A stretch of DNA of 64,000 nucleotides, taken from positions 115,339 through 179,338 of the forward strand of contig CAYGKO010000001.1 of the NCBI GenBank assembly GCA_964350735.1, read 5' to 3'. Position numbers and translations under genes: made by a program. The stretch is from an uncultured Candidatus Saccharibacteria bacterium (GTDB taxonomy: Bacteria > Patescibacteriota > Minisyncoccia > Phycocordibacterales > UBA918). Shown here in pieces: positions 3,382 to 49,075 of this stretch. The notes below the pieces were generated by a model. That model ran no database searches. It was not told the origin of the DNA and worked only from the letters and a program-made list of their open reading frames with translations. The stretch's first letter is position 1; every line of letters starts with the position of its first letter.

Positions 3382-3424
3382 TTGGGCTTGAATCTGGTAG
3401 TATCTCTGCCACAATTGAATATTT

Positions 3425-3509: not shown

Positions 3510-3516
3510 CAACTGC

Positions 3517-3542
3517 AAAATAGCGCCTTTTGGCGCTATTTT
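3517..3542 (+). terminator. Intrinsic terminator after tRNA-Ser
   Basis: aaaatagcgcc-tttt-ggcgctatttt followed by a T-run. Confidence 0.6.
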
Positions 3543-3548
3543 GTTTGT

Positions 3549-3682: not shown

Positions 3683-3683
3683 A

Positions 3684-3724
3684 AAAAGTAAAAGTCGCGC
3701 CCATGGGCGCGGCTTTTACTTTTG
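3684..3724 (+). terminator. Intrinsic terminator (GC-rich hairpin gtcgcgccc-atg-ggcgcggc flanked by A/T runs)
   Basis: aaaagtaaaagtcgcgcccatgggcgcggcttttacttttg. Confidence 0.6.
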
Positions 3725-3740
3725 TAGATACTCAAGAAGC

Positions 3741-4799: not shown

Positions 4800-6086
4800 A
4801 TGGAACACATGCTGTACTGGATCAAACGATTTCTACCGACCTCGCTTTTAAATAGTATCCGGCCGCTCTATCACTATTCTCTCGCTTGGCTGGGCGCCAC
4901 TATCTACCGCCACCCCTCAAAACACATTACCGTGCTCGCAGTAACTGGCACTAAAGGCAAGTCGACTGTTACCGAGCTGGTGACAAACATTCTTGAAGGT
5001 GACGGCAAATCAGTGGCATCGCTCTCTACGATTCAATTTAAAGTTGGCAACGACGTACGCCCAAATCTTTACAAAATGACCACCCCCGGGCGCTTCTTCG
5101 TGCAGTCATTCCTGCGTGAAGCCGTTGACGCCGGCTGTATTCACGCGGTCATCGAACTCACCTCAGAAGGTGCAAAACAGTTCCGTCACAAATTCCTGGA
5201 ACTTGATGCACTGATTTTTACCAACCTGACACCAGAACATATCGAGTCACACGGTTCGTTTGAAAACTACAAGAACGCCAAGTTACAAATCGCCAAACAG
5301 CTTGAAGCATCGGTGAAACAACCTCGCTTCATCGTCTCCAATACCGACGATGAACATGGCACGGACTTCTTAGCTGTCGACGTAGAAGAAAAAATCCCGT
5401 ACGGTTTAAAAGATCTTAAACTTTATACCCTGCACAAAGACGGGATCGGCCTCATTTTTACCGACGGCGAAGACGAACGAACTATCCGGGTTCCGCTCGT
5501 CGGACTCTTTAATGTCTACAACGCCCTAGCAGCTATCAAACTGACTCGAGCTCTCGGAGTGTCACTTAATTCTATCGAGAAGTCCTTGCGGTCATTACCC
5601 CCAGTCAAAGGTCGGGTGGAACATGTGTATAGCCCAAAGGAGGCCACCAAACAAGTGACCGCCATCGTCGACTACGCCCACACTCCCGACTCACTCGAAA
5701 AGCTCTACCAGGCCTTTAAAGACGTGCCTAAGATTGGTGTACTCGGTAACTGTGGTGGTGGCCGCGACAGCTGGAAGCGCCCGGAGATGGCTAGTATCGC
5801 CGAACGCTACTGTGACTACATCATTCTCACTAACGAAGATCCGTACGATGAAAATCCGCGGCAGATCGTCGAGCAAATGACTAAAGGAATTGAAAACAAA
5901 GAGAAATTTGAAATCATCATGGATCGGCGAGCAGCTATCGCCACCGCGATCAAGAAAGCTCCGTCCGGTGGCTACGTGCTCATTTCTGGTAAAGGAACTG
6001 ATCCGTACATCATGGGACCAAACAACACCAAAGAACCTTGGAGCGATGCTGAGGTAGCGGCTGAAGAATTAGCGAAGCTAACGTAA
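4800..6086 (+). CDS. murE: Mur ligase family protein, probably UDP-MurNAc-tripeptide synthetase MurE
   Basis: VTGTKGKST P-loop, DNPR-like C-terminal domain (NEDPYDENPRQI), GKGTDPY; 429 aa from ATG 4800. Confidence 0.65.
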   Translation: MEHMLYWIKRFLPTSLLNSIRPLYHYSLAWLGATIYRHPSKHITVLAVTGTKGKSTVTELVTNILEGDGKSVASLSTIQFKVGNDVRPNLYKMTTPGRFFVQSFLREAVDAGCIHAVIELTSEGAKQFRHKFLELDALIFTNLTPEHIESHGSFENYKNAKLQIAKQLEASVKQPRFIVSNTDDEHGTDFLAVDVEEKIPYGLKDLKLYTLHKDGIGLIFTDGEDERTIRVPLVGLFNVYNALAAIKLTRALGVSLNSIEKSLRSLPPVKGRVEHVYSPKEATKQVTAIVDYAHTPDSLEKLYQAFKDVPKIGVLGNCGGGRDSWKRPEMASIAERYCDYIILTNEDPYDENPRQIVEQMTKGIENKEKFEIIMDRRAAIATAIKKAPSGGYVLISGKGTDPYIMGPNNTKEPWSDAEVAAEELAKLT

Positions 6087-6087
6087 C

Positions 6088-6119
6088 AAAAAACCTTTCG
6101 ATATATCGAAAGGTTTTTT
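6088..6119. terminator. Bidirectional intrinsic terminator between convergent murE and the SpoU gene
   Basis: aaaaaacctttcgatat/atcgaaaggtttttt, a perfect palindrome. Confidence 0.7.
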
Positions 6120-6120
6120 G

Positions 6121-6603
6121 TTACTTTTTGAACAACACTATCCCCGCGGTCACCGAGACATTCAGTGACTCCTTCATGCCAGCCATTGGTATCTCAAGTA
6201 TTTGATCACAGACTTTGATTATTGCTTCTGGTACTCCATCCACTTCATGCCCGAGCACATAGACCACTTTTTCTGGTACAAAAAAATCGTAGTATGAAAT
6301 TGACTCTTCTCCCTGCTCGATTGCGACCACCGTCCACCCGTCAGCCTGAAGCTCATTAATTAAGGCGAGAGTCTCGTCTAACGACTCGCTCGTCGCTTCT
6401 CCCACATGCTCCCAGAGAATACTCTCACTCGCCCCGAGCGACGTCTTCTTAATCTCAGCCACCTCCCGCCCAAAGCGATCAATCGGCAATGGCGTCGTAC
6501 CGACTAAGTACAAATGCTCCACCCCCGCCCCATCACTGGTCCGGAAAATCGACCCCACATTATGGGCACTCCTGATGTTGTATAAAATCGCTCGTTTTTG
6601 CAT
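6121..6603 (-). CDS. SpoU/TrmH-family RNA 2'-O-methyltransferase (TrmL-sized)
   Basis: NVGSIFRTSDGAGV, LGHEVDGV and IPMAG...SLNVSVTAGIVLF are the SPOUT motifs; 160 aa. Confidence 0.7.
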   Translation of the reverse strand: MQKRAILYNIRSAHNVGSIFRTSDGAGVEHLYLVGTTPLPIDRFGREVAEIKKTSLGASESILWEHVGEATSESLDETLALINELQADGWTVVAIEQGEESISYYDFFVPEKVVYVLGHEVDGVPEAIIKVCDQILEIPMAGMKESLNVSVTAGIVLFKK

Positions 6604-6644
6604 ATTTTTCTTAAATTTCTATTACAGAAATAGACGAAAAATCA

Positions 6645-7565
6645 CTAATTAAATTTATATTGATCAGCTCCTGTTTCAAAAATATTAATTAATGATGTTA
6701 CCGCCATATCACTAGCTGTACGATTAGCCTCATGAGTATTGAAGGCAGTATGATCGTTAGAATTCATCCAAATTTCTTTTGGTAAGTCATTAAATTTTTC
6801 AGCTGCTGGATAATCTTGGAATCCGCGAAGTCTACCCGTGTTCACCTCTTCGTATATTGCTTCCTGATCAAGGCCTCCAATAAAACCACAATCAATGATC
6901 AGTGAACCGTCTTTCACTTTAGCGAGTTCAGTTTTACCAATAAAACCAAGTCCAGCGGTTGAAGGAGCGTGAAGTGTCACTACATCTGAAGATTCTAAGA
7001 GTGTATCCATACTCACATATTCAGCATAATCAACTTTTTTATCATTTGGCCCGGTGTATAAAACTTTTTTAACTCCAAGACCACGACACATCTGAACAAC
7101 TTCCTTTCCAATTGCACCAAGTCCAATAACCCCAACCGACAGATCTTTGAGGGATTTTGTAGTTTGAAATGTTCGTTCTCCAGTACGTGTTAGCTCAGCG
7201 AGGTTTCTGGTCATTGCCATAATATTAGAGACTGTGTATTCAGCCACCGCGTAGGCGTTTGCTCCAGGAGTGCCTGTAATCGCAATACCTTTATCAGTTG
7301 CTACCTGGTGACCAGGAATAAAACTAAATGGATCAGCTCCGGTGAACGTAATTACCTTTAAATTCTCTCCAGCCTGGATCACTGCTTCAGTTACGGTTTC
7401 AATACCACCAATAATATAGGCGTCTTTATCTTTGATGGCCGCCATGAGTTCTTCCTCGCTTGCTTTTGGATTATCTAAACGCTCTACCTCAAAACCATGC
7501 TCTTGCAACTTGGCTACATGCTCATCAAAAATGAAGAGACTATCGGTAACTAACACTTTTTTCAT
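6645..7565 (-). CDS. D-isomer-specific 2-hydroxyacid dehydrogenase (NAD-binding) family
   Basis: GVIGLGAIGKEV Rossmann motif, catalytic HAPST/His-containing C-terminal half; 306 aa. Confidence 0.75.
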   Translation of the reverse strand: MKKVLVTDSLFIFDEHVAKLQEHGFEVERLDNPKASEEELMAAIKDKDAYIIGGIETVTEAVIQAGENLKVITFTGADPFSFIPGHQVATDKGIAITGTPGANAYAVAEYTVSNIMAMTRNLAELTRTGERTFQTTKSLKDLSVGVIGLGAIGKEVVQMCRGLGVKKVLYTGPNDKKVDYAEYVSMDTLLESSDVVTLHAPSTAGLGFIGKTELAKVKDGSLIIDCGFIGGLDQEAIYEEVNTGRLRGFQDYPAAEKFNDLPKEIWMNSNDHTAFNTHEANRTASDMAVTSLINIFETGADQYKFN

Positions 7566-7568
7566 AAT

Positions 7569-8060
7569 TTATGAGCTCGGAATTACATCGTTACTATATC
7601 CCAACTTTTCAAATGGCCACACCTGCTTCAGCCAATTATCCAATTCTCGATAGAGAAGTTCATACTTTCCTTCATCATATGCCCTTTGGGTTACCCAAAA
7701 ACTAACATCCACATCTGCATCTTTTGATTTGTCGTTACGATAACCCGGTTCGTAAAGATAAAAACAACCAATGTATTCTGAACCATCACTTGCATATACA
7801 ACATAAGCGAATGAACTTCTGAATTCAAATTCTCGTTGATGCCACGCTAAATCAATCTGATCTTCTTCAAAGGTTAAAGACGAATCAGGCCAATCATATC
7901 CTCGAGTTTGGTTGATGATAGCAATGCTATTTATGACTGCTTCGTAATCATCTTTAACATCAGAAAAACAAAGTTTACGAAATAAAAAATTGTTCGTTTC
8001 ATGCCGTTCTGGCACTGTAAATGATTTTGGGATAAATTTCATAACTCCAGTATACCGCAT
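7569..8060 (-). CDS. Hypothetical protein (possible acyl/acetyltransferase-like fold, unconfirmed)
   Basis: 163 aa soluble protein with no diagnostic motif recognised. Confidence 0.3.
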   Translation of the reverse strand: MRYTGVMKFIPKSFTVPERHETNNFLFRKLCFSDVKDDYEAVINSIAIINQTRGYDWPDSSLTFEEDQIDLAWHQREFEFRSSFAYVVYASDGSEYIGCFYLYEPGYRNDKSKDADVDVSFWVTQRAYDEGKYELLYRELDNWLKQVWPFEKLGYSNDVIPSS

Positions 8061-8128
8061 CTAAATTATCGACAAGGAAATTCATTATGGTATAGTTTCG
8101 GACACATTTGGGCATCGCCCAGTGACAT

Positions 8129-8201
8129 CCGCCCTTAGCTCAGTTGGTAGAGCAGCTCCCTTTTAAGGAGATGGTCCCAGGTTCGAGCCCTGGAGGGCGG
8201 A
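8129..8201 (+). tRNA. tRNA-Lys (anticodon UUU)
   Basis: CCGCCCT/AGGGCGG acceptor (C1-G72), D-arm GCTCAGTTGGTAGAGC, anticodon loop CUUUUAA, T-arm CCAGG-TTCGAGC-CCTGG. Confidence 0.8.
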
Positions 8202-8251
8202 CAAATGAAAAGACCGGCTTAGCCGGTCTTTTCATTTGTCCGCCCTCCAGG
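8189..8251 (+). terminator. Perfect 30-bp-arm palindrome (terminator-like) whose left arm contains the last 13 nt of tRNA-Lys
   Basis: cctggagggcggacaaatgaaaagaccggc-tta-gccggtcttttcatttgtccgccctccagg. Confidence 0.7.
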
Positions 8252-8650
8252 TGCAGGATTTGTGCATACAAATCCGTTGCATGGCTCGAAAAGCTTTTGT
8301 GGTATTTTAGGAACGTAGTGAACTAAAATATCCAAAAGGTATACTGTTCATGTAATGGAAGAGTCCACATTATTTTAAATAAAAAATGAGATTGTCCCAG
8401 TGGGGCAATCTCATCGTGTTCAATTCAACGAGGACGTTGACAATTTGAACATGTCTTCTGGCCCTCGCTGTTACTGCTGAAAGTGCAGTGACTGCACCTC
8501 CAGCAACCCGAAGGTGGCGTTGGGTTTGTTTTAGGTTCGGATTTTTGACCAGATCCTGGCATAGAATTTCTTTCTTTGGAACAGGGAGAATAATATTATA
8601 ACATACAATTGCTTTTTTAGCAAGTATTACACTTATGCTACAGTACCCTC

Positions 8651-9382
8651 ATGCTCCCCCCTTCCCTAACCCACGCCATCTCAACCGCCACCGACGGCAA
8701 TATGGGCCTGCGTTTTGGTACTGAAGCAGAAGTCACTCTAAACAGAAAGACGTGGCTTACGAAGCAAAATATTGACCCCAACCAAGTCTGCTTAATGGAC
8801 GTTGCTCACGAAGCCGACATCTTCGATGTGACTAAAGAAAACTTTGAACCCAATATGCGACCCGTCTGTGACGTCCTCGTGATTCAAGAACCAAACCTTG
8901 CCCTGATGCTCCTCACTGCCGACTGCCTGCCGGTCACTATCTACGATCCGGTCACCACCACCATCGCCCTTGGTCACTTTAACCGGCACAATATTCCCTT
9001 TGAAATCGCTAAGAAGACTATCACTCATTTAGTAGAACACTACGGCAGCAACCCAGCGGACCTACTCATTCACATTGGTCCCTGCATCAGCGCAGATTCA
9101 TACCGCTTCCCCCTCCCACTTCAACAAGAACCCCCACCTGCCACAAAGCCGTACGTAAAAATTAAAGATAACCACGCTCATGTCGACGTCACCCGCGCGC
9201 ATGTCGATGCACTACTTGAAGTTGGCGTGCCAGAAAAACAAATCACCCTCCCCACCATCGACACTGCCACTCACCCCAACTACTACTCCCACTTCGCCAC
9301 CAAACAACTCGAAACCAAACCAGACGGCCGCTTTGCAACGGTCGTGCTACGAAAAATCCTACAGGATCAACACCCCATCTAA
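8651..9382 (+). CDS. YfiH/PgeF (DUF152, laccase-domain) family protein
   Basis: LTADCLPV and ALGHFNRHN blocks resemble the conserved Cys/His motifs of PgeF/YfiH; 243 aa. Confidence 0.5.
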   Translation: MLPPSLTHAISTATDGNMGLRFGTEAEVTLNRKTWLTKQNIDPNQVCLMDVAHEADIFDVTKENFEPNMRPVCDVLVIQEPNLALMLLTADCLPVTIYDPVTTTIALGHFNRHNIPFEIAKKTITHLVEHYGSNPADLLIHIGPCISADSYRFPLPLQQEPPPATKPYVKIKDNHAHVDVTRAHVDALLEVGVPEKQITLPTIDTATHPNYYSHFATKQLETKPDGRFATVVLRKILQDQHPI

Positions 9383-19443: not shown

Positions 19444-19448
19444 ACCAG

Positions 19449-19492
19449 AAACACAAAAGGCCGAAAGCGTACGCTTTCGGCCTTTTGTGTTT
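19449..19492. terminator. Bidirectional intrinsic terminator (convergent acidic gene and tyrS)
   Basis: aaacacaaaaggccgaaagcg-t-acgctttcggccttttgtgttt. Confidence 0.7.
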
Positions 19493-19495
19493 CGT

Positions 19496-24791: not shown

Positions 24792-26207
24792 TTATTTGAG
24801 TAGGAGTCTAATTTGCGTAATTTCTTCTTCGAGCTCGTTGTTATCTTTAAGGTCATTTTTTACCTTTTCACATGAGTGAATTACAGTTGTATGATCACGA
24901 CCCCCCATTTTTTGTCCAATGGCTGGGTATGAGACTTGGAAATCTTCACGCAAGATATACATAATGAGCTGGCGAGGCTTCACTACCTCTTTACGACGAG
25001 TTTTTTCGTAGATTGATGACGGATCAATGTCGAAGTAGCGAGCGACTTTATCTACGACATCAGAAACAGCGAGGGTTTTCCGAGGCCGGGTGCTATTTTT
25101 GATGATCTGTTTTACCTCATCAAGTGAAAGGGTCCGCCCAAGTAGTTGTGACTGACACATAATAGTGTTTAAAGCTCCTTCTAATTCTCGGATGTTCCCT
25201 TCAATGGTGTGCGCAAGATGTTCGACCACATCGTCACTAAGTGAAATACTATTTTGAGCTGCTTTAGCTTTAAGGATTGCTGCTCGCGATTCGAGATCTG
25301 GCGCTGGGATATCAACAATCATCCCTTGAGCGAAGCGCGACTGTAGTCGTTCTTCCATTCCATTAAGTAACGCTGGGTGGATGTCACTTGAAAATACAAT
25401 TTGTTTGTTTGTGTCGTGTAGAGCATTAAACAGGTGAAATAATTCCTCCTGCGTCTTCTCTTTGTTAGTTAAAAACTGGACATCATCCATGATAAGAGCA
25501 TCATATTGACGGTACTTGTCTTTGAAGCTATTGGCGGTTCCGTTTTGTAGAGAGTTGAAATAATCAACAGTAAACCGCTCACTCGTGACATAAAATACTT
25601 TTTTACCCTGTCGCTTCAGGTGATTGCCTACTGCCTGGATGAGGTGGGTTTTACCATGGCCGGTTTTACCGTAGATAAACAATGGATTATAAGTGATACC
25701 TGGTTTTTCACTCACTGTTTTTGCTGCAGTATGAGCTAAAGCATTAAAAGGTCCGATTACAAACGTGTCAAAAATATACTTCGGGTTAAGGTTGTCACTC
25801 TTATTGATGTAATACTCCTCTAGGGGTAGGGCTGCGTTTACGGTTTGTTGTTTTGTTTCTTGCCGCTTGTCATTTCGTTGTACGACAGCGTACTCAATGC
25901 TTCGCACGTGTGGAGTGAGGTCCCGCAGGGTTTTAAGGATGAGTGACTGGAATTTATCCGAAAGCCAATCTCGGACAAATACACTCGGGACACCGATAGT
26001 GATAGTTCCGTCTTCAAGCGAAACAATGTGGGTATCTTTAAACCAAGTTTTGAAATTGGCGGGAGTAATTGAAAGTTCGACAGAGACTAAAGCATCATCC
26101 CACAGCTTTTTTACATCAACTTGTTCAGTTTCAATGATGCTATTACGAGACGAAGAGTGTGTAGTGGGATTCATACCAATCAAACAGACGTTTAAGGTAA
26201 GAAGCAT
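24792..26207 (-). CDS. dnaA: Chromosomal replication initiator DnaA
   Basis: GKTGHGKTHL Walker A, AAA+ box, C-terminal HTH (HTTVIHSCEKV); alternative start at 26174. Confidence 0.9.
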   Translation of the reverse strand: MLLTLNVCLIGMNPTTHSSSRNSIIETEQVDVKKLWDDALVSVELSITPANFKTWFKDTHIVSLEDGTITIGVPSVFVRDWLSDKFQSLILKTLRDLTPHVRSIEYAVVQRNDKRQETKQQTVNAALPLEEYYINKSDNLNPKYIFDTFVIGPFNALAHTAAKTVSEKPGITYNPLFIYGKTGHGKTHLIQAVGNHLKRQGKKVFYVTSERFTVDYFNSLQNGTANSFKDKYRQYDALIMDDVQFLTNKEKTQEELFHLFNALHDTNKQIVFSSDIHPALLNGMEERLQSRFAQGMIVDIPAPDLESRAAILKAKAAQNSISLSDDVVEHLAHTIEGNIRELEGALNTIMCQSQLLGRTLSLDEVKQIIKNSTRPRKTLAVSDVVDKVARYFDIDPSSIYEKTRRKEVVKPRQLIMYILREDFQVSYPAIGQKMGGRDHTTVIHSCEKVKNDLKDNNELEEEITQIRLLLK

Positions 26208-26932: not shown

Positions 26933-27670
26933 ATGTTTAGTTATATTTGGCACACGTTTTTCTTCGACCCAGTGTACAACGGTCTAGTTTTCTTCATTGA
27001 TATTATTCCTGGCGGCGATATTGGTTTAGCCATCATCGCGATTACAGTAGTGGTGAAGTTGCTCTTACTCCCTCTCTCAGTGAAAGCGGCCAAGACGCAG
27101 GTGATTATGCGCGAGTTGGAGCCAAAGCTTAAAGAGATCAAAGAGAAGTTTAAAGATAAGCGTGAAGAACAAGCGCGAGCGATGATGGATCTGTATAAAG
27201 AAGCTGGACTGAATCCGTTTGCCAGTATCCTTCTAATTTTGATTCAGTTGCCAATTATTTTTGCCCTCTACTTTTCAGTTTATAGTGGTGGTGGTGTAGC
27301 GTTGCCTGAAATCAACACGGCTCTTTTATATAGTTTTATTCCCACTCCTGAGTTTGTCAGTATGATCTTCTTAGGAACGATTGATATAGCAGCTAAAAGC
27401 TGGCCCCTTGCCCTCTTAGCTGGAGTCACGCAGTTTATTCAATCACACCTAGCTATTCCTAAACCTACTCCTCGTGAACCAGGGGCTGAGCCAAGTCTTA
27501 AAGATGACTTTGCGCGTAGTATGCAGCTCCAAATGCGCTATGTAATGCCTGTGTTGATTGGTTTTGTAGCGTACTACATCTCAGCCGCCATCGCTCTATA
27601 TTTTGTAGTCAGTAATATCGTTGCTATCGCTCAAGAGCTGTACGTTCGAAAGTACAAGAGACAGAATTAA
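26933..27670 (+). CDS. yidC: Membrane protein insertase YidC (short Oxa1-like form)
   Basis: 245 aa; the conserved YidC helices and synteny after rnpA. Confidence 0.8.
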   Translation: MFSYIWHTFFFDPVYNGLVFFIDIIPGGDIGLAIIAITVVVKLLLLPLSVKAAKTQVIMRELEPKLKEIKEKFKDKREEQARAMMDLYKEAGLNPFASILLILIQLPIIFALYFSVYSGGGVALPEINTALLYSFIPTPEFVSMIFLGTIDIAAKSWPLALLAGVTQFIQSHLAIPKPTPREPGAEPSLKDDFARSMQLQMRYVMPVLIGFVAYYISAAIALYFVVSNIVAIAQELYVRKYKRQN

Positions 27671-28512
27671 GGTTTTACACAAACATATTCTGTTAGAGAA
27701 CCGACGGTCATTTCTCTTATTTCATTACCGGTTTCAGTTGCAAGTGTGGCACCTTCACATTCGTCATACCAAATATCTATAATTTCATTCTTCTCATCAA
27801 TTGATCGGCCTTCAAATTCACTAACATTAAATCTTTTAACTACTGATTTAAACTCACCAGCCTCAATTCTTTTTTGCTCTTCTTCAGCAATCACTTCACG
27901 CTCTTCTTTTGTTTTAGATAGGGTTCCAAAACTACTATCGATACACTCATATCCACTGGGAATACTGGGGTTTTTGGTATAAGTTTGATTGCAGCCACAT
28001 ACACCACCTGCTTTGGATTGGTCACAGGCTGCGTCTCGTTCTGCCCTGAATTCTATCCCCACCTCCCCCCGCGCATTAAACACACAGCCCGGCTTTGGGT
28101 TATTAGGGTCTGAAGAATCCTTCGGGCTACATATCTCTTCTAAGGCTGTAAAGTCTGTCAGCTTTGGATTAATGGTCTCTAAAATTAACACTGCTCCCAG
28201 CACAATCAGTAACCCTAACAACGCACCTTGAATTTGCTTCTTAGCCGCTCCTTTATCAGTTACCACGTCACTCAACATGTACTGAACACCAGCTAAAATG
28301 ATTCGGACTACCGCTAAGAACGCAGCGACTGAGATAGATAGAATGTAGAGTGCGTTGATGTAGCCAGCGGTAGAGAGATTGTTGGGATCGAGGCCGGGGA
28401 TGCCGACGAGTTGCACAAACCCCTCAGCCAAAACAAAATTTGGTAGGAGTAATAAAAAATTAATGAGGATTATTTTAGGAACCAATGAGATCATATTGCC
28501 AAAGTGTGCCAT
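27667..28512 (-). CDS. VirB2/TrbC-topology pilin-like protein A with Cys-rich C-terminal extension
   Basis: Signal peptide, two TM helices (ALYILSISVAAFLAVVRIILAG / ALLGLLIVLGAVLIL) separated by a short basic loop, then about 140 aa with 8 Cys; the core is 100% identical to paralogue B. Confidence 0.45.
   Translation of the reverse strand: MAHFGNMISLVPKIILINFLLLLPNFVLAEGFVQLVGIPGLDPNNLSTAGYINALYILSISVAAFLAVVRIILAGVQYMLSDVVTDKGAAKKQIQGALLGLLIVLGAVLILETINPKLTDFTALEEICSPKDSSDPNNPKPGCVFNARGEVGIEFRAERDAACDQSKAGGVCGCNQTYTKNPSIPSGYECIDSSFGTLSKTKEEREVIAEEEQKRIEAGEFKSVVKRFNVSEFEGRSIDEKNEIIDIWYDECEGATLATETGNEIREMTVGSLTEYVCVKP
28067..28411. repeat. 345-bp perfect direct repeat, copy 1 (inside pilin A)
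   Basis: Identical base for base to 30057-30401, checked line by line. Confidence 0.9.
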
Positions 28513-29641
28513 CAATTTTATTTACAAAATATAATACCCCACCCTCTTCATTCATCTGAGTAACATCAATCGGTCGATTAGAGGTGCTAAAAAGATCAAT
28601 TTTTAAGGTAGATATTCCAGTTACTAAGTTAGTTTCCCAAATAATATCTTGTGAGTTTCTATTTCCTTTATACCAATTTTCGATATAGTCCGGAGTAAGC
28701 TGTTCGGATGGTGATGCACACCATAGTGTACTGCCAATTGCGTCGCATTTTTCCGGCAGAGGTACTATCGCTAATTCAATTAAGTCAGGAAATATTTGAG
28801 CACGAGCGACTCCATATAATACTTCACCATCAGTTTCTGTAGTGATGAAATGGTCGCTGGTTGGAAACCCAACAAAACCAAAACTACTTGGAGTGACTGC
28901 TTCGAGGCTATTATTAGTTGCTTTGTATAAACTTCCTTCTAATAACTCACTCGACTTTGGATGCACAAAAACTTCTGACCCACTTTGGTAGATAATCACA
29001 TCTTGTAAACTCAGGCTCTGACTTTGGTTTTGTTCGAGCGTCTCACCATTAAAGGTAAATAACCCACTCCCCGTAGTAGTATTGGTTGAGTAACTAATCG
29101 TATTATCCCCAACAGATATATTCTCTATATTAATTGGTAGTGATCGACCAACAACAGAACCACTGCTGCCAGAGATTTCTATCCTTCCGAAAAATGTTTC
29201 ACGGATATATCCAGATTCGGATACTAAGGCCACGTATTCACCGCTGGTTGAAAAATAGGCTTCAGTGACTCGAGGAATAGTGGTGCCTGAGATTCGTCTC
29301 TCTTCCCCAGAGTCTAGGTTAATTTCGTAAATATGCCCAGTTCCATTCTCTGCGTATCGCACAAATAAAGAGGAAGTGCTTGAAACCACAGTGAAGCCTG
29401 CTACCGGCCGGAGCGTTAGTTGGCGGAGCGCTTCGCCAGAAACATCAATTAATACATCAGGATCTGGATTAACAGGATCAATCAAAATTGGATTTTCTGG
29501 TTGCTCTGTAATATCAAAACCAAAGTTTGAGAAGATACTCGTCCCAGTCTCATCAGTGTTAAAGAACATTAAGTATGCCCATAGCCCTAGTACTAGGAAT
29601 ATTACGACTATTCCAGCGATAATAAAAAGAGGTTTTTTCAC
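28475..29641 (-). CDS. N-terminally anchored beta-propeller-like protein (TolB/PD40-like repeats), T4SS-cluster member
   Basis: GTG start, TM anchor MKKPLFIIAGIVVIFLVLGLWAYL, then repeated beta-strand-rich blocks; sits between the two pilin paralogues. Confidence 0.4.
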   Translation of the reverse strand: MKKPLFIIAGIVVIFLVLGLWAYLMFFNTDETGTSIFSNFGFDITEQPENPILIDPVNPDPDVLIDVSGEALRQLTLRPVAGFTVVSSTSSLFVRYAENGTGHIYEINLDSGEERRISGTTIPRVTEAYFSTSGEYVALVSESGYIRETFFGRIEISGSSGSVVGRSLPINIENISVGDNTISYSTNTTTGSGLFTFNGETLEQNQSQSLSLQDVIIYQSGSEVFVHPKSSELLEGSLYKATNNSLEAVTPSSFGFVGFPTSDHFITTETDGEVLYGVARAQIFPDLIELAIVPLPEKCDAIGSTLWCASPSEQLTPDYIENWYKGNRNSQDIIWETNLVTGISTLKIDLFSTSNRPIDVTQMNEEGGVLYFVNKIDGTLWQYDLIGS

Positions 29642-29698
29642 GTATATAGTATACCAAGCTAGTTAACGGTAGTTTTGTATCATTCGGGATAGGTATTG

Positions 29699-30490
29699 CT
29701 ATGGTTGACTGCACTGAAATCCAGTGACGATTCCCTCTGCGTTCCTAACTTGTTTAGCACCATGACAACCGGTAGGCCTACCCGGGTTACCAGGTTGTCT
29801 GTCTTTAAATGTGCAACCACAAACTCGCTCAGCATAGTCAGCCTGCTTTTCTAGCACATTTTTTAATACCTCCCCTTGAACATCTGCTCCTTGAGAGCCG
29901 TTTAGTGCCGCCTCTTCTTCTTCAGTTAATTCAATAGTTTCAAAATCTTCATCAATCTCTATATTTTGTTCACGCAATCTCTGTGCCTCAGTTTTACTTA
30001 CAGAGCAAGCCCCATCTTCACCAGTAGCAGCACAAAATGATATAACCTCTACTCCTCCCCGCGCATTAAACACACAGCCCGGCTTTGGGTTATTAGGGTC
30101 TGAAGAATCCTTCGGGCTACATATCTCTTCTAAGGCTGTAAAGTCTGTCAGCTTTGGATTAATGGTCTCTAAAATTAACACTGCTCCCAGCACAATCAGT
30201 AACCCTAACAACGCACCTTGAATTTGCTTCTTAGCCGCTCCTTTATCAGTTACCACGTCACTCAACATGTACTGAACACCAGCTAAAATGATTCGGACTA
30301 CCGCTAAGAACGCAGCGACTGAGATAGATAGAATGTAGAGTGCGTTGATGTAGCCAGCGGTAGAGAGATTGTTGGGATCGAGGCCGGGGATGCCGACGAG
30401 TGGTTTATATGAATTGATAGTTTCTTGTCCAAATGTAGCTAGGGGTAAAAAGAATAAAATAAGTAGTAGCAGTAAACGCAAATTGAACAT
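29699..30490 (-). CDS. VirB2/TrbC-topology pilin-like protein B with divergent Cys-rich C-terminal domain
   Basis: Different signal peptide and C-terminal domain; the central 115 aa are identical to pilin A. Confidence 0.45.
   Translation of the reverse strand: MFNLRLLLLLILFFLPLATFGQETINSYKPLVGIPGLDPNNLSTAGYINALYILSISVAAFLAVVRIILAGVQYMLSDVVTDKGAAKKQIQGALLGLLIVLGAVLILETINPKLTDFTALEEICSPKDSSDPNNPKPGCVFNARGGVEVISFCAATGEDGACSVSKTEAQRLREQNIEIDEDFETIELTEEEEAALNGSQGADVQGEVLKNVLEKQADYAERVCGCTFKDRQPGNPGRPTGCHGAKQVRNAEGIVTGFQCSQP
30057..30401. repeat. 345-bp perfect direct repeat, copy 2 (inside pilin B)
   Basis: Identical to 28067-28411; offset 1990 bp. Confidence 0.9.
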
Positions 30491-30491
30491 A

Positions 30492-31448
30492 TTAAAAACG
30501 CAGTGTGAAGTTATTTTGAACCCCTTGTAGTAATTGGGTTAAGTTACGAATATGGAATTCAATTTTGAAATTGCCGTTTCCTCCACCATTTTGTAGAGTG
30601 ATAGTTTGTTGATCTTCGTTGGGGTTTTGAATCACTGATCCATTAATTGACCACTCCAGTAATGGGTTGCTTTCAAATATTGATTCATCCATGTAGTACG
30701 GCTCAGCTCGAACATCAACTTCTGGGCCAACCAAGCTGTAGACAGTGGGTACAGAAATCCGGGAGATCCCGCGCAGTGGGTTGTCGGGATAAAAATATAA
30801 TTCTGGCTGCACAGCTGGAATGACGAGGCTGTCGCTCGCAATTACTTCTCCTGTTTGAGTGAGTACATCAACTCCTAATATAGCGTCTCTACCCATCGGC
30901 ATCTGGAATTCTGCTACATGTTTACCTTTAATAGAACCTCCAAATAATACCTTGTTGTTTAAACGCCACACGTATGAGTAGTTTTTAGGGTCGGTACCGT
31001 TAATCTGCGGTAGGGCTACAGCTCGAACAGTACTGTCGGTAGAAGGTAGGGCACGACCTTTGTAGAAACTCGGTGTGAGAGTTTTTGCTTCGATAATTAT
31101 GTCTAGGCGCTGCGGTTGTAGAGTATACGTAACAGGAATAATACGGCCAACACGAGTGGTGATTTCTGCCATTATTTTATTTATTGACCCAGCCACTGGT
31201 GCCACTAGCTCAATAGTTCGATTATTAGCAGCTGGCAATAATTCTTCATCGTCAACAAACCACTTGATACTTCCACCGCTAGTATCGATAGTATAGGCAT
31301 TGAGTGACAGTTCGACAATTTCGCCTGGTTCAGGAAAACGCGGGTCAGCAATAATTGAAATATTTGTCTCGCCAGTCAATGTTTGGGCTGAACCAAAACA
31401 TGGGAATACTAATAATAACAATATAAAAATAGATCGGAATCGATACAT
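30492..31448 (-). CDS. Secreted protein of unknown function (signal peptide), T4SS-cluster member
   Basis: MYRFRSIFILLLLVFPCFGSAQT signal peptide; 318 aa. Confidence 0.4.
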   Translation of the reverse strand: MYRFRSIFILLLLVFPCFGSAQTLTGETNISIIADPRFPEPGEIVELSLNAYTIDTSGGSIKWFVDDEELLPAANNRTIELVAPVAGSINKIMAEITTRVGRIIPVTYTLQPQRLDIIIEAKTLTPSFYKGRALPSTDSTVRAVALPQINGTDPKNYSYVWRLNNKVLFGGSIKGKHVAEFQMPMGRDAILGVDVLTQTGEVIASDSLVIPAVQPELYFYPDNPLRGISRISVPTVYSLVGPEVDVRAEPYYMDESIFESNPLLEWSINGSVIQNPNEDQQTITLQNGGGNGNFKIEFHIRNLTQLLQGVQNNFTLRF

Positions 31449-31479: not shown

Positions 31480-32193
31480 TTACCTCGTGATGTAGGTAGC
31501 GCCAGCCCAGATAGTAGCCCACGGGAGCATTCCTCCCGAAAGAGGGGCTATAGATAGCGCTAGTAAAATTATAAAAGTGTAGGTACTCATAAAAGTTAGA
31601 AGCTTAATTTTATTCATTACGAGATAAGAAGAACACATACTAAATATCGCGATCAGAGAACTGATAAGCCATCCAACAGCGAAGAAGATATATCCAAAGG
31701 TGGCAGGATCAATAAATAAATCAAGGAAAGGAATATATTCAGTAAGAGTAGTGCCAAAAGCAGCCAGTGCCGCGCCAAATAAACTCATAACCCAAAAAGA
31801 TAAACCTAACTGCCAGCCAAGGAAAGTGATTGGTATAACAATTCGGCCTACAAATAATCTTCTCGCTACACCTCTGGCGAGACGAATCATTATATTTTGT
31901 TTTTCTGATCCCCGCGCCACTTGAGTAAACGAGTTTTGTTGATTTGGCTGTAATAGCCAGTCGTTTACATCATCATGAGATTTTTTTGCTAGTTTTTTTG
32001 TTGAGAGCGTGCGGGCTCCATATTGGACGTGATTGAATTGGCTGCTGATGTCACGCTTATCTAGATTGTCAGCCAACATTTTTGAGCGCAAGCTCATGTT
32101 TTTTCGAACAGCTGCCCGGCCTATCTTTTTAACTTTTTTAACAGCCTTGGATCCAACTACTTGTGCTGTTTCCACAATAAGAGGTGCAGCCAT
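31480..32193 (-). CDS. Membrane protein (basic N-terminal region, about 4 C-terminal TM helices), T4SS-cluster member
   Basis: 237 aa; sits directly downstream of virB4. Confidence 0.4.
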   Translation of the reverse strand: MAAPLIVETAQVVGSKAVKKVKKIGRAAVRKNMSLRSKMLADNLDKRDISSQFNHVQYGARTLSTKKLAKKSHDDVNDWLLQPNQQNSFTQVARGSEKQNIMIRLARGVARRLFVGRIVIPITFLGWQLGLSFWVMSLFGAALAAFGTTLTEYIPFLDLFIDPATFGYIFFAVGWLISSLIAIFSMCSSYLVMNKIKLLTFMSTYTFIILLALSIAPLSGGMLPWATIWAGATYITR

Positions 32194-34010: not shown

Positions 34011-34652
34011 TTATTGGTTGGGGGCGTTACCTGCAATATCGCCGGGATTGAAGATATGATAGTAGAGTTCAACTAATTCTTCGTTTTGTAAGGCGACAGT
34101 TTTAACACCAACTCGGTTGAGTCCTTGTTCGACGACAGTGACTCGTTGTTCTAGCTGAGTACGATGCTCTGCAAATGACTGATCTTCAATCACTACATTT
34201 TTCTTGGCCCCAAATAGGCTGCTAATATTGGACTTGAGATTGATATCAACTGGTGTATACGGAATTACTACAAAGAAGTTCTTGGTCATGATATCAACTT
34301 CGCTAGTGAATGTTTTCACAAACTGCATATACTCTCGGAGCTGAATCTTCATGAGGTCGTTATATTGATCATCTTCTCGGGCTGCTAACAGTCCAAGATA
34401 CGGCTTGATGTCTAGTCGTCGTGACTGCACGTAAATCTGTAATGAAAAATCAATGGTGTTTAAAAATGATTGAAACTGTCGCAAAATAGAAGCTTGTTCA
34501 TCAAGAGACTTAAGGGCAAAGTTGATAGAAGAGGCTAAGAGCACCATGTTCATCTGTCCGTTTTTTAAGACCACCACCCCATCACGAATATCTTGCACGG
34601 GGACAAACTGTTGGGTGGAAGCTTGATTTTGAGTTTTTGTTTTTGCAGGCAT
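34011..34652 (-). CDS. VirB4 N-terminal domain encoded as a separate ORF (split or frameshifted virB4)
   Basis: FVPVQDIRDGVVVLKNGQMNMVLLASSINFALKSLDEQASILRQFQSFL matches the N-terminal module of Gram-positive/CPR VirB4 homologues; TAA-AT-ATG junction with the next ORF. Confidence 0.5.
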   Translation of the reverse strand: MPAKTKTQNQASTQQFVPVQDIRDGVVVLKNGQMNMVLLASSINFALKSLDEQASILRQFQSFLNTIDFSLQIYVQSRRLDIKPYLGLLAAREDDQYNDLMKIQLREYMQFVKTFTSEVDIMTKNFFVVIPYTPVDINLKSNISSLFGAKKNVVIEDQSFAEHRTQLEQRVTVVEQGLNRVGVKTVALQNEELVELYYHIFNPGDIAGNAPNQ

Positions 34653-34653: not shown

Positions 34654-35082
34654 TTATTTTTCTTGTTGCAGGGCTTGCAGTTCTAACTTGCGAGATAGCG
34701 AGTGGATATTACTACCTGACGTTGGTGGAACGTACGAAGCGATTGGAGTATTTCCAGTGTCTTCATTGTTGTAGAGGACGTCGGTTTTTTTTCGCCATAA
34801 GTATAAACGACTAGTACTGAAGTATTGTAAGGCGGCTTCTAAGAAGACTGAAAATGGGCGGTTATTGACTGGGTAAAACGCCAACAGAAACGCTAGGCCA
34901 GCGATTGGTAGTCCTAGTAAAACAAATACGATGAAATTAGTGGTCAAAAATAGTACTACCGCGATACCAGCCCCACCCATTAGGTAGACGAATTGCTTCC
35001 AAGTGAATGGACCAAAAATCTTATCCTCAATTTCAATAAATTGTGGTACCTCAAATCGCATAATCGTACCACTATTATACAT
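34654..35082 (-). CDS. VirB3-like small membrane protein
   Basis: Small membrane protein with a hairpin-like TM pair immediately upstream of virB4, as for VirB3/PrgI/ConD analogues; start uncertain (35112, 35082 or 35061). Confidence 0.35.
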   Translation of the reverse strand: MYNSGTIMRFEVPQFIEIEDKIFGPFTWKQFVYLMGGAGIAVVLFLTTNFIVFVLLGLPIAGLAFLLAFYPVNNRPFSVFLEAALQYFSTSRLYLWRKKTDVLYNNEDTGNTPIASYVPPTSGSNIHSLSRKLELQALQQEK

Positions 35083-35086
35083 GGCT

Positions 35087-35119
35087 AACGCGGGTGGAAG
35101 CTTTGCTTCCACCCGCGTT
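35087..35119 (-). other. Perfect 15-bp-stem hairpin inside the operon, between the acidic protein gene and the VirB3-like gene
   Basis: aacgcgggtggaagc-ttt-gcttccacccgcgtt, no T-run. Confidence 0.5.
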
Positions 35120-35680: not shown

Positions 35681-37762
35681 TTAGGGTGAAAACCCTGCGA
35701 TAGCAAATTGACCACCATAAGAATTTCCAGTGACCCAACCACGCCAAGCACTTCGAACACTTCCTGGAGCAGTATCATAATAAGGTTGGAATTCTGCGAC
35801 TATTGATGCTAATTCAGGAGTAGATAAACCATTCTTCATTCTTTCTTGCAAGATTGCCGGTGTTAGGTATGGGTACATTGCATTTTTTGTGAATACTTCA
35901 GGGTCAATCTTACCAGCCTCTTCGTTACTCCGCGCAAACACATCACTATGTGTAATACCATGAGTCGTACTTCCAGGAGCAGCGCTAGCAACAGCAATAA
36001 ATGCATCGTTTCTCGCTTTTTTTAGACTATTTTTATCTGGGTCAGCCAGATCAAGGTCATCAATTTGTTTTGCCGATAGAGTGACAGCATTTTTTGGTTT
36101 AACCAACTCTGTAAGTGGAATAGATCCAAGCTTATCTTTACTGAGTTTACCAACATTTTTAGGCCCACTTGCTGTGCCAACAGTAGCTAGAACACCCTCT
36201 CCCCGTTTTGTCGCTAGCTGATTTCGGAATTCATCATCCAGCTGATCATTATCCATGAGAGATTTAACGTGGTCTCCTTTAAGAATGGCAGCATTTGCAA
36301 TAAGTGTTGCCCTACCATCGGCTGTTTCAGCCAGCTCTTTAATCTGGGCAGAACTTGCATTATAGAGGGCGCGTTCACGGACATCCTGATCGCTACTTCC
36401 TAAGTCTTTACGCAGGTCTCCAACAGCGATGCTTCGAGTTGCGCGCTGACGCCGTTCTGTACTTTGCTTCTCTACGTCAGCGCGCCCGAGACCACCACCA
36501 GCTTTATAGTCTCGAGCCGCGGTGAGGCCACGCCGAGTAGATTCACCACCTAATAAGGTGCGAGTTACTTTTGCTGTGGTACTACCACTTTCGGCAGCTC
36601 TATCCATACGATCCCAAAGATTGCGGACACCACCAGCAGGTAAGCCAACACCAGTTCGGTAGGCTGCCCCAGCAGCTGCTCCTCGTGCTGCATTACCAGC
36701 GCTTTTCAGGGCACCTAAGGTTGCTCCAGCGGCTGAAGAGCCCATTTTTTGGGCTATCATCATAGAAGCAATCATAAATCCAGCGGCTACAAAGAGCATA
36801 AGGAAAGCTCCAAAACTGCCATTGGCCGTATAGCCATCTTCAAAAGTAGATCCTTGTAGAGGCATTGCACGCAGAACGTTTAGTGAAATAAACATCATGA
36901 AAAGAAAAGCTGGCGCGATGAAAGCGTGTTTAAAAAATTCTGACCACCAGTATGATTGCGCTCGTTCTAATTTTGGAAAGATAAATCCAGCAAACATAAG
37001 CGGCGAAAAAATCATGAACACAATCAGCATTACAAACCGCTTCACTAAGATTAGGGCAGCGGTGGCAAAAATGAGTCCAATAATGATCATAAAAATCATC
37101 ATTAAAAATCCATACACGATTACCTTTACAGACAACCAATCAGCCTCACCACTCATCTTGCTGGCTATAGCCCCTTTATCAAATGAGCTAAACCCAAGAA
37201 CGTTCATGATTCCTCCAGAGATGCTTTTACCAGCCTCAGCTTCACCAGTTCCGATAGTTTGCCCATTGATTGTGTAACTACCAGTGATAGTAATTTGGTC
37301 GTAAATTTGGGTAGCTGCGATATTTGAAAAATCTATTATAGTTTTTGTTATTAACAAGCTGAAGTTAATAAGCAGGGCTGCAATAATAAGTTTTCCTAAT
37401 AATTTACGAGTATCTGCTTTACCTGAATCAAGAATAGTTTGAATACCAATATAGACTAACGCAAAAATAAAGAGCATATTGAGTAAATCACGCACAACTA
37501 CCCAAAGTTGATCCACTGCAACACCAACAGTAGCAGTTAAGGTGTCACCCATTTTAATAACTAGTTCAAGTATAGCGAAATCCAACAATGTCCCTCCCAA
37601 CCAAACTACAGCTCCTCCAATACCAATAAAAATAAACCAAAAAAAACTTTCAATTACTGTGCCTGCCCACGAAGTGGCGGCTGCAATTTGTGGCACAGTG
37701 GCACAAAAGAATAGAACAAGTGTGGGAAGTAGGTATTTTGTTTTTTTAGAATTTAAAAACAT
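35681..37762 (-). CDS. VirB6/TrbL-like polytopic membrane protein with long Gly/Ala-rich and hydrophilic C-terminal extension
   Basis: Signal peptide, then at least 6 TM helices in the first 350 aa, GAAxGAA tracts, roughly 300 aa hydrophilic tail; start at the internal ATG 37760-37762, which abuts the upstream gene. Confidence 0.5.
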   Translation of the reverse strand: MFLNSKKTKYLLPTLVLFFCATVPQIAAATSWAGTVIESFFWFIFIGIGGAVVWLGGTLLDFAILELVIKMGDTLTATVGVAVDQLWVVVRDLLNMLFIFALVYIGIQTILDSGKADTRKLLGKLIIAALLINFSLLITKTIIDFSNIAATQIYDQITITGSYTINGQTIGTGEAEAGKSISGGIMNVLGFSSFDKGAIASKMSGEADWLSVKVIVYGFLMMIFMIIIGLIFATAALILVKRFVMLIVFMIFSPLMFAGFIFPKLERAQSYWWSEFFKHAFIAPAFLFMMFISLNVLRAMPLQGSTFEDGYTANGSFGAFLMLFVAAGFMIASMMIAQKMGSSAAGATLGALKSAGNAARGAAAGAAYRTGVGLPAGGVRNLWDRMDRAAESGSTTAKVTRTLLGGESTRRGLTAARDYKAGGGLGRADVEKQSTERRQRATRSIAVGDLRKDLGSSDQDVRERALYNASSAQIKELAETADGRATLIANAAILKGDHVKSLMDNDQLDDEFRNQLATKRGEGVLATVGTASGPKNVGKLSKDKLGSIPLTELVKPKNAVTLSAKQIDDLDLADPDKNSLKKARNDAFIAVASAAPGSTTHGITHSDVFARSNEEAGKIDPEVFTKNAMYPYLTPAILQERMKNGLSTPELASIVAEFQPYYDTAPGSVRSAWRGWVTGNSYGGQFAIAGFSP

Positions 37763-37763
37763 A

Positions 37764-39329
37764 CTATAAACCAGAGAGGGTACATGCTGTACGTCCAACC
37801 TCGATCGCTTCTTCAAGCTCATCTTGGGCATTTTGTAATTCGTTCTCAATAAAGAGTTCGGTCACAACCAAGTCCACATCGTTTTTAATGGCCCCAGCTT
37901 GCACTAAGTCGAAGTAACGATTAAAGGCCACTTGCTGAGCCGCTGAGCTGGTGGCGGCTTCAAATTGTGACTTAATGCTATTTTCACCCCCAAGTTCATT
38001 TAAGGCCATTTCTGCAAGACTAATTTCTTGCTGGGCTTCAATACTGTGGTTAGCAAGTACCTGGAATCGATTGCGGATGGTTGGAATCTCATTGGCGAAA
38101 CAATTCAAAATACCAGTTTGCTCTTCCCCGTTTTCATCAAGGAGGGGCTCGTTAGTATTTGGATCTCTAATTACAATCGTAAATTGAGCGATAGCCTGTT
38201 CAATCTCTATGAGAGAAGACTGTACTTCTCCTCGAATTCTTTCTTGGAGTTGAATATTACGCCGTTCAACTGCAATCGATTCATCGATACTGAGTGCGTT
38301 TCCAACTACTTCGTTATTATTTATAGTTTCTTGCTCTAAAGCCGTTAAGTAATTACGTCCGCTACTTCCTGCAAATGAGGTGTCTTCGTAGCTACTCCCT
38401 CCCATGCCGAGCAGTCCGTAGGCGCCAGTCAACGCTTGTTGCGCTAGTTGCGCAAACAAAGCTCCGATGATCTCATTGATTTCATCCGCTTCGATGAGGG
38501 CTAAAGATCCCGTTTGTAATTCAAATGTCAGTTGATCAGAAATGATTTTTCCTGGGGTGGTGGTTTTACAATCCTCTTTCCCACCCGCTGCACTATCGGC
38601 GTTTTCACAAAATTCTAAGTTAAGGAAGAAATCGTTAGCAGCGAGTAGTTCCAACTTTTTCCCCTCGGCATTTTGTAAGCGAATACCCATTTCAGTACTA
38701 GCAGCTAACACTGCACCAGTTGGGTTGCTGGAAGGGTTTTGGGTTAGTTCAAACCAAGCTGGCCACCCACCTTGTGAAAAATCACCACCAAGGAAACCTT
38801 CTATATTGTCAGTAATTTCTGAGATGGTACATTGTGGTTGATAGTCGCGAGATTGTTGGTATTGGAGTGAAAGGGCAATCCGAACATCAAGCTCAAACGG
38901 GCTACATAAGAAACCAAGTTCAGTGCCATAAATGAAATCTCCGGCTACTTGATCAGCCACATCTAATAAAAATCCATCGAGGTCGGTTACAAAAGCCGGG
39001 CTACCTTGGAAGCCCGAGTTAATCCAATTAAGAATACTGGAGGTCACACCTTTAAGGACGGTTTTCATCAAACCAAAGGCAATACCATCGAGCGTAAGCT
39101 CTTTAATATTGAGGGCAGTCTGGAGACCAGTTTGGACAGTTTCAGCTGCAGCACTGATGGTTGATTCAACTGACGTTTTAATATTTGTTCCAAGGTTGGC
39201 GCTGTCTATTACTGAGAGTGCGGCGTGGGTCGTTTGCACAGATCCGTTATATGAAAATGGAGTTAAAAACAATGCAATTGTAATAAGCAGAAGAATACTT
39301 TTTTTGGTTTTTTGTATTGTTCTAAACAT
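37764..39329 (-). CDS. Secreted 521-aa protein of unknown function (signal peptide, C-terminal coiled-coil region), T4SS-cluster member
   Basis: MFRTIQKTKKSILLLITIALFLTPFSYNGS...HA signal peptide. Confidence 0.4.
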   Translation of the reverse strand: MFRTIQKTKKSILLLITIALFLTPFSYNGSVQTTHAALSVIDSANLGTNIKTSVESTISAAAETVQTGLQTALNIKELTLDGIAFGLMKTVLKGVTSSILNWINSGFQGSPAFVTDLDGFLLDVADQVAGDFIYGTELGFLCSPFELDVRIALSLQYQQSRDYQPQCTISEITDNIEGFLGGDFSQGGWPAWFELTQNPSSNPTGAVLAASTEMGIRLQNAEGKKLELLAANDFFLNLEFCENADSAAGGKEDCKTTTPGKIISDQLTFELQTGSLALIEADEINEIIGALFAQLAQQALTGAYGLLGMGGSSYEDTSFAGSSGRNYLTALEQETINNNEVVGNALSIDESIAVERRNIQLQERIRGEVQSSLIEIEQAIAQFTIVIRDPNTNEPLLDENGEEQTGILNCFANEIPTIRNRFQVLANHSIEAQQEISLAEMALNELGGENSIKSQFEAATSSAAQQVAFNRYFDLVQAGAIKNDVDLVVTELFIENELQNAQDELEEAIEVGRTACTLSGL

Positions 39330-48903: not shown

Positions 48904-49040
48904 GCGATCTACTTCGTTACATTCGTGAAAAAATTATTCACCTTACGACCAGTAAGGCTCATAATTTTTTCACTCTGTGCCTCGTATCTCATCTTAGAAA
49001 TGATTGCGAGCTATCAGGGTAAGAAATATAAATATTTAAA

Positions 49041-49075
49041 AACAAAAACCACCGACTAGTCGGTGGTTTTTGTTT
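49041..49075. terminator. Bidirectional terminator hairpin
   Basis: aacaaaaaccaccgac-tagt-cggtggtttttgtt. Confidence 0.65.

Follow-up and report, generated by a model that had tools for sequence, protein, structure and literature searches.

Among the systems described so far, the Trw type IV secretion system (T4SS) of Bartonella may be regarded as the closest functional analogue of the locus analyzed here, which resides in a 64-kb stretch (the window) of contig CAYGKO010000001.1, assembly GCA_964350735.1, and consists of two VirB2-like pilin genes, pilA and pilB, with a beta-propeller gene between them. In Bartonella Trw, the genes trwL (VirB2) and trwJ (VirB5) are amplified; diversifying selection acts on them, and they evolve in concert (Nystedt et al. 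2008, as cited in PMC2883598). The likeness lies in the presence of several co-expressed VirB2-type paralogues in one T4SS locus and in recombination between the copies, which obscures orthology. According to PMC2883598, the Trw system works without a coupling protein and serves host-specific adhesion rather than transfer. However, Bartonella, an alphaproteobacterium, is diderm, and its short canonical pilins are encoded in tandem runs, whereas the window stems from an ultrasmall bacterium of a monoderm-type lineage and encodes two pilins with private ectodomains of 120-130 amino acids (aa) and a propeller gene between them. A second set of amplified VirB2 genes is known from Anaplasma phagocytophilum and A. 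marginale, where 8-15 paralogues each feature a signal peptide and two conserved hydrophobic helices (PMC3556328). Their diversity resides in hypervariable regions, one of them near the C-terminus, which have been interpreted as exposed variable structures. In contrast to the pilins studied here, those of these intracellular animal pathogens have no large ectodomain, and identical-core tracts are not reported for them in PMC3556328.

The gene family itself is known from Patescibacteria, for whose VirB2-like pilin arrays a recent survey reports high variability, with a within-array identity of 25% on average and 54% at most at the amino acid level (Quinonero-Coronel et al. 2025, PMC12102498). 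These arrays belong to the same gene family (PF18895/PF04956-type) and to the same type of cluster (VirB4, PrgI/VirB3, polytopic membrane proteins, no relaxase seen). Identity over the whole protein is of like order in the window, but here it is composed of a core that is 100% identical and of ends that are unrelated. The term 'gene conversion' does not occur in PMC12102498, and its available part does not discuss a C-terminal ectodomain or a propeller partner and names the propeller gene only as 'a non-pilin gene'. No publication on gene conversion of pilins in the Candidate Phyla Radiation was found in the searchable literature, and the same holds true for partial homogenisation. The type IV pilins of Neisseria combine a constant N-terminal assembly helix with a variable, disulfide-bracketed C-terminus and undergo non-reciprocal recombination between gene copies. 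In this case, the variable part is copied from silent cassettes (pilS) into a single expression locus (pilE), and the pilin superfamily is unrelated to that of T4SS. In the window, on the other hand, homogenisation affects the constant part of two expressed genes, and a search of the 64 kb did not yield any silent cassettes. The elements on which the following rests are, in window coordinates:

27667-28515, minus strand: pilA, located downstream of the propeller gene and encoding a VirB2-like T4SS pilin, 282 aa when read from TTG 28515
28067-28411, minus strand: repeat copy A, the core of pilA, from the predicted mature N-terminus (LVGIPG) through helix 1, a Lys-rich loop and helix 2 to a linker that contains 2 Cys
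27670-28066, minus strand: private ectodomain of pilA, 133 aa, 6 Cys, ending ...YVCVKP
28475-29641, minus strand: gene X, encoding an N-terminal transmembrane (TM) helix and a beta-propeller, located between the repeat copies, 388 aa
29699-30490, minus strand: pilB, located upstream of the propeller gene and encoding a VirB2-like T4SS pilin, 263 aa, with its own ATG and signal peptide
30057-30401, minus strand: repeat copy B, the core of pilB, an exact match to copy A
29702-30056, minus strand: private ectodomain of pilB, 118 aa, 6 Cys, ending ...FQCSQP, an orphan

When the window is compared with itself, the two repeat copies agree in 345 of 345 positions and are oriented as direct repeats. 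The borders are abrupt at both ends. In the next 30-300 nucleotides (nt) on each side of both copies, ungapped identity amounts to 0.17-0.30, which is chance level given a GC content of 45%. Self-BLAST did not reveal a second long direct repeat in the 64-kb window, and the other self-matches are short palindromes. Both copies lie inside minus-strand open reading frames (ORFs), those of pilA and pilB, and encode 114 whole codons plus one common Gly, i.e., the same 115 residues (LVGIPG...NARG), which hold both hydrophobic helices (residues 56-74 and 97-115 of pilA). Synonymous divergence (dS) between the copies is 0 over 64 synonymous sites. A previous reading of the same DNA, made from the sequence only, had proposed an exact identity of the two segments over 345 bp, a common stretch of 115 aa including both predicted TM helices and unrelated DNA in the 5' (signal peptide) and 3' flanks; self-comparison, translation with hydropathy analysis and the identity values of the flanks fully agree with all of this.

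Independent information on the repeat stems from Logan contig L072 (run ERR3534985, 1705 bp), which matches window positions 28382-30086 exactly and ends exactly 30 nt inside each repeat copy. Since Logan contigs are, as we assume, built with k=31, we take these 30 nt to be k-1, and on that reading the assembly graph branches at both repeat borders. Contig L072 supports the borders of the repeat and does not prove that the two copies agree at every interior base in the reads. As a two-copy direct repeat allows only a single linear traversal, there is no doubt about the gene order.

The pilin genes are part of a co-oriented, tightly packed gene string on the minus strand. The pilB start lies 1 nt past the stop of the preceding ORF. 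For pilA, the NCBI annotation sets the start at ATG 28512 (281 aa, P0001), while ATG 28494 (MISLVPK...) agrees with the start called in a relative (P0003) and is probably the real one. In its longest form, pilA begins within the 3' end of the propeller gene, so that its first ~40 nt (28475-28515) are part of both genes but are read in different frames. An N-terminal sequence 'MA(P/H)FGNM' of the downstream pilins was considered as a family motif and rejected, as it reflects the overlap with the conserved propeller C-terminus ...TLWQYD read in the other frame. The signal peptides of PilA and PilB differ. Each pilin contains eight cysteines, two in the common linker and six in the private part.

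PilA and PilB match the T4SS pilin family PF18895 with 18.5 and 18.7 bits, respectively (E ~2e-3), which is below the curated cut-off of 26.6; the family matches 32 of the 35 aligned relatives, with a best E-value of 1.2e-7, and PF04956 (TrbC/VirB2) is present in one relative (P0068). A search of PDB sequences with the family profile did not yield a meaningful match (best E 2.2, a chance hit to a hemerythrin). Hydropathy analysis places hydrophobic segments of PilA at residues 11-29, 56-74 and 97-115, and an AlphaFold2 (AF2) model predicts helices at 5-26 (signal peptide), 48-80 and 87-114 (hairpin) with pLDDT (predicted local distance difference test) values of ~75-82. The loop between the last two helices, DKGAAKKQ, is short and basic. 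A signal peptide followed by two hydrophobic helices that are joined by a basic loop is a feature of VirB2-like proteins, and genes of the VirB4 and VirB3 type reside on the same strand in the same gene string. PilA and PilB are best explained as old paralogues and as VirB2-like pilins of a chromosomal, origin-proximal T4SS-like apparatus in a Paceibacteria-type Patescibacterium. The sequence-only reading had already taken them for VirB2-type pilins, and this view as well as their place in a T4SS-like cluster is backed by the PF18895 matches in relatives and by VirB4 and PrgI next door.

To what extent the identity of the two cores is a matter of recent events becomes apparent from the corresponding loci in relatives, all of which stem from Paceibacteria/Parcubacteria-type metagenome genomes. 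The nearest relative found is a 78.7-kb ENA contig (L001) that shows the same gene order as the window: VirB4, two ORFs, pilin, propeller, pilin, yidC, rnpA, dnaA. The VirB4 proteins are 97% identical, while the genes share 80% of their nucleotides and differ in a proportion of 0.77 of their synonymous sites (pS); for dnaN, dS is 1.7, and synonymous sites are thus saturated. The two L001 pilin genes have an exact tract of their own, which comprises 252 bp, differs in sequence from that of the window and has another 5' border. Upstream of this tract they are homologous yet diverged, and downstream they are unrelated. DNA identity between the cores of the window and L001 is only 65-70%. With its own tract and its saturated divergence from the window, L001 demonstrates that the copies are alike within a genome and different between genomes. 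Furthermore, the signal peptides of the downstream pilins are orthologous (MISLVPK...FVLAEGFVQ in the window, MISPLPK...FVLAEGFVK in L001). The paralogues therefore predate the split of the two lineages, and the cores were overwritten later and separately in each of them.

Exact tracts were also found in distant genomes, with 388 bp in L010 and 313 bp in L019, both at 100% identity, so that four genomes carry different exact tracts (345, 252, 388 and 313 bp) and the phenomenon has recurred independently. For the pilin pairs that are open to comparison, core dS within the pair is 0 in the window, L010 and L019, 0.12 in L001, 0.18 in the tandem pair of L021, 1.1 in L037 and ~2 in L005 and L006. 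Taken together, these values form a graded series as would be predicted for episodic conversion with subsequent decay. Concerted evolution is evident from saturated divergence between genomes (pS 0.71-0.84) versus core dS values of 0-0.12 within genomes, and the genes of the window and of L001 are mosaics in which a sharply bounded identical tract is embedded in otherwise diverged sequence. As a rough bound (3/64 versus dS >1.7), the age of the last conversion in the window would be less than ~3% of that of the split from L001.

We consider it probable that gene conversion between old paralogues, which best explains the patterns seen, has caused the 345-bp identity. Recent gene conversion had been suggested from the repeat alone, and this suggestion gains substance from the relatives' own tracts, the dS of 0 and the saturated orthologues. 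Several points weigh against this explanation or set bounds to it. The identity of 100% stems from metagenome assemblies, which are able to smooth near-identical repeats. Conversion is not universal, as the cores of L005 and L006 share only 54% of their amino acids within the pair. Purifying selection alone can keep cores very similar at the protein level, as exemplified by L037; it cannot, however, explain identical synonymous sites. The L037 pilins (5692-6690 and 7986-8954) have cores with 93% amino acid and 81% DNA identity (dS 1.1, dN, i.e., nonsynonymous divergence, 0.05), with a dN/dS of ~0.05 that speaks for strong purifying selection on the core; either this pair was converted long ago, or such selection holds its two cores together. 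RecA dependence and the direction of conversion are inferred, and neither direction nor mechanism is observable. Finally, co-assembly of the two pilins and binding to a host are plausible only, and the model of the ectodomain is of low confidence.

The same data bear on the question of whether the identity might be a product of the assembly, i.e., whether the cores are similar only, or one copy is chimeric, and the assembler placed a consensus in both positions. Every sequence considered here is indeed a metagenome assembly, and short related contigs tend to end in the core (L075), indicating that the region is difficult to assemble. Still, a linear path can pass through the two copies of a direct repeat in one way only, the contig assembled independently from ERR3534985 stops 30 nt into each copy, and the phenomenon recurs in four independent assemblies from different projects, each with its own tract length. 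Nor are near-identical copies collapsed in every case, as other pairs retain 82-96% identity, and we regard an artefact as extremely unlikely. A biological alternative is a recent partial duplication, in which the core or a pilin-propeller unit was newly copied and the ends were replaced by unrelated sequence later, such that identity would simply reflect young age. Duplications do occur in this family: the tandem pilins of L021 are 95.9% identical over 604 bp and have homologous, diverging ectodomains, L077 exhibits a propeller-pilin-propeller arrangement, and locus architecture varies, as detailed below. However, the window and L001 have both the order pilin-propeller-pilin and the pilA-type signal peptide in common in spite of their saturated synonymous divergence, so that both positions were occupied before the split. 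The L001 mosaic, a diverged homologous 5' part followed by a tract of 100% identity, is a signature of conversion and not of duplication, and more events would be required to replace both ends of a fresh copy by non-homologous sequence with reading frame and Cys framework left intact. A young duplication is therefore highly improbable. In the L021 pair (5911-8151), the core has a dN of 0 and the ectodomains diverge progressively towards the C-terminus beyond the similar first 604 bp, which looks like a recent duplication in which the outer domain is in the course of diverging.

The variable-pilin layout of a constant core with a hypervariable, Cys-framed C-terminus invites yet another explanation, namely programmed cassette variation of the pilE/pilS kind, with the core as recombination anchor, ectodomain cassettes that move into an expression site and antigenic or host-range switching within the population. 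The occurrence of three ectodomain families on both sides of the propeller gene is in line with the idea insofar as ectodomains move over evolutionary time. However, both genes are complete, have their own start and signal peptide and are part of one tightly packed, co-oriented string. Neither tblastn nor self-blastn revealed a further copy, silent or not, of the core or an ectodomain in the 64 kb, and among the 120 of 216 homologues listed, only pilA and pilB are recorded on the 408-kb contig. In addition, the homogenised part is the constant and not the variable one, and with two expressed copies only, there is nothing to switch between. Cassette-type switching, which the sequence-only reading had brought up, is not supported by full-length genes without further copies in the 64 kb, and we judge it very unlikely.

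All 35 aligned family members (158-447 aa) continue past helix 2 into a variable region, which in every one of them contains one invariant Cys plus an invariant terminal Cys 2-8 residues from the C-terminus. The large Cys-rich ectodomain had been called unusual. This is true in comparison with canonical VirB2 but not within the family, where a C-terminal extension ending in an invariant Cys is present in all 35 members. At least a dozen sequence families can be distinguished among the C-terminal regions. Family 1 occurs downstream of the propeller gene in L001 and L037 and upstream in L005, family 2 upstream in L001 and downstream in L019, and family 6 downstream in L006 and upstream in L010. 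Because three families occur on both sides of the propeller gene, ectodomains have been reshuffled over evolutionary time, and the proposed modularity of the C-terminal domains is thereby supported. P0004 was dropped as a further case of an ectodomain moving from an upstream to a downstream position, as its contig (L077) reads propeller-pilin-propeller and renders the position ambiguous.

The PilA ectodomain has weak relatives in P0007, P0021 and P0075 and one 86-aa fragment only. Among 1.84 billion representative proteins, the PilB ectodomain has no relative beyond itself; the sole other match is a Glu-rich low-complexity stretch. AF2 confidence is low for the PilA ectodomain (pLDDT <50 over residues 221-281), and the model is usable for the helical core only. 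In VirB2/TraA pilins, the basic loop between the helices is cytoplasmic before assembly and lines the lumen of the filament, and both termini face outward. By analogy, the C-terminal domain would decorate the outer surface of the filament.

The gene between the repeat copies had been taken for a beta-propeller gene, and this proved correct: the AF2 model of gene X reaches a pLDDT of 92.4, and its best matches in the PDB (Foldseek) are WD40, PD40, BamB and TolB propellers. Gene X has 74 homologues. The protein features an invariant Cys pair and a set of invariant W/D/N motifs near the C-terminus and has no Pfam family. In the loci fetched and analyzed by profile searches, propeller-pilin is the most frequent arrangement (42 loci), followed by pilin-propeller (18), pilin-propeller-pilin (10, including the window) and pilin-pilin-propeller (1). 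The propeller gene adjoins a pilin gene in every close-pilin locus that is long enough to show the neighbor. Pilins for which no propeller partner was detected are the distant L065, L066, L069, L070 and L071 as well as L075, a fragment at the end of a contig.

These data also speak to the proposal that the repeat might mediate deletion or inversion of the intervening gene. Inversion is excluded because the repeats are direct. Deletion is mechanistically possible and was not seen in any close-pilin locus of sufficient length; with the propeller kept at every informative locus, deletion products are evidently not retained. The reciprocal product of crossing-over, an expanded array, may exist. 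Contig L077 (ENA ERZ27251128 k141_604001, 2023 bp), in which pilin P0004 has a propeller gene on each side, suggests such an expanded pilin-propeller array, as would be expected to arise by duplication when cores cross over unequally.

Beyond the pilins, the gene string and its surroundings comprise the following:

30492-31448, minus strand: 318-aa ORF, hydrophobic segment near the N-terminus, 71% aa identity to its syntenic counterpart in L001, same gene string
31480-32193, minus strand: 237-aa polytopic membrane ORF, fast evolving, 24% aa identity to its L001 counterpart (L001 6123-6908)
32197-34008, minus strand: VirB4-type ATPase (PF19044 TraG P-loop, E=4e-26; AAA_10; DUF87)
34011-34652, minus strand: 213-aa cluster protein, whose L001 orthologue carries PF26593 (TraC-like)
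34654-35112, minus strand: PrgI/VirB3-like protein (PF12666, E=5e-10)
35681-37849, minus strand: 722-aa polytopic membrane protein with 7 hydrophobic segments and no Pfam match
24792-26207, minus strand: dnaA
26587-26925, plus strand: rnpA
26933-27670, plus strand: yidC

The last three were assigned from their translation and from synteny with L001, where Pfam labels are available. The pilin locus abuts this replication-origin gene set (yidC, rnpA, dnaA, dnaN), with dnaA 1.5 kb from pilA. Domains of a relaxase or a coupling protein (T4CP) were not detected among the 16 cluster and neighboring ORFs scanned. With VirB4, PrgI/VirB3, VirB2-like pilins and dnaA nearby, the cluster fits the definition of the Patescibacteria T4SS in PMC12102498, which includes the lack of a relaxase and a coupling protein and a frequent location beside dnaA, and judged by the cluster composition given there, the 722-aa protein is a candidate for a VirB6/PrgH-like channel subunit. 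With 24% identity to its counterpart next to a VirB4 at 97%, the 237-aa protein is the second component of the apparatus in the membrane that evolves very fast. A scan of the cluster for promoters and terminators gave sites no more frequent than in shuffled sequence.

Elsewhere in the window, a near-perfect palindrome of 63 nt (8189-8251) has the 3' acceptor arm of a tRNA-Lys gene (8129-8202, plus strand) as one of its arms; its inner part resembles a terminator hairpin while the outer arm is an inverted repeat of the tRNA end. Perfect palindromes at 19448-19493 (46 nt), 49040-49075 (36 nt) and 63371-63404 (34 nt), mostly at gene ends, are probably bidirectional terminators. A 285-aa ORF (2878-3735, minus strand) wholly contains a predicted tRNA-Ser gene (3425-3510, plus strand) and is probably spurious.

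How could the mosaic have arisen and what might it be good for? Each pilin is composed of a signal peptide of the Sec type, a core that forms a hairpin of two helices, and its own Cys-framed ectodomain. Homologous, RecA-type and non-reciprocal recombination between the copies 2 kb apart would have led to one core recently overwriting the other, and the tract extends as far as the two genes can be aligned, up to the signal peptide at one end and the ectodomain at the other. As conversion recurs, the cores would evolve in concert within a genome and diverge between genomes. Both subunits are thereby likely to keep one assembly interface for the shared machinery and may co-polymerise, and two different outward-facing ectodomains are probably displayed for contact with the host cell. 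One could go further and propose that the cores are kept identical not merely through their proximity but for the sake of a heteropolymeric T4SS filament or of their fit to an assembly platform with the adjacent membrane-anchored propeller, and that the core at the same time provides a homology handle by which the fast-evolving, near-orphan ectodomains are exchanged between positions and strains, thus resetting the host specificity of the epibiont. We put this forward as a speculative idea with a low chance of being correct.

The T4SS-like apparatus with its pilin array is one of the few gene sets shown to be essential to a cultivated Patescibacterium, Southlakia epibionticum, in its life as an epibiont (Wang et al. 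2023, according to PMC12857230). For surveys of such arrays, our findings imply a caution, as identities calculated over whole proteins hide the mosaic, and they flag the propeller protein as an uncharacterised core component. Gene conversion between neighboring paralogues is textbook biology. Both the process and the gene family are known, and what is added here on the descriptive side is the mosaic of a homogenised core and private ectodomains along with a constant propeller partner. If the speculative idea given above holds true, the locus would encode a modular VirB2-type pilus with a constant shaft and a swappable surface domain, an arrangement that would have evolved convergently to that of type IV pilins and has not been described for pilins of a T4SS to date. 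The combination of a conserved, probably converted core with fast-evolving ectodomains offers a concrete hypothesis for the seat of host specificity.

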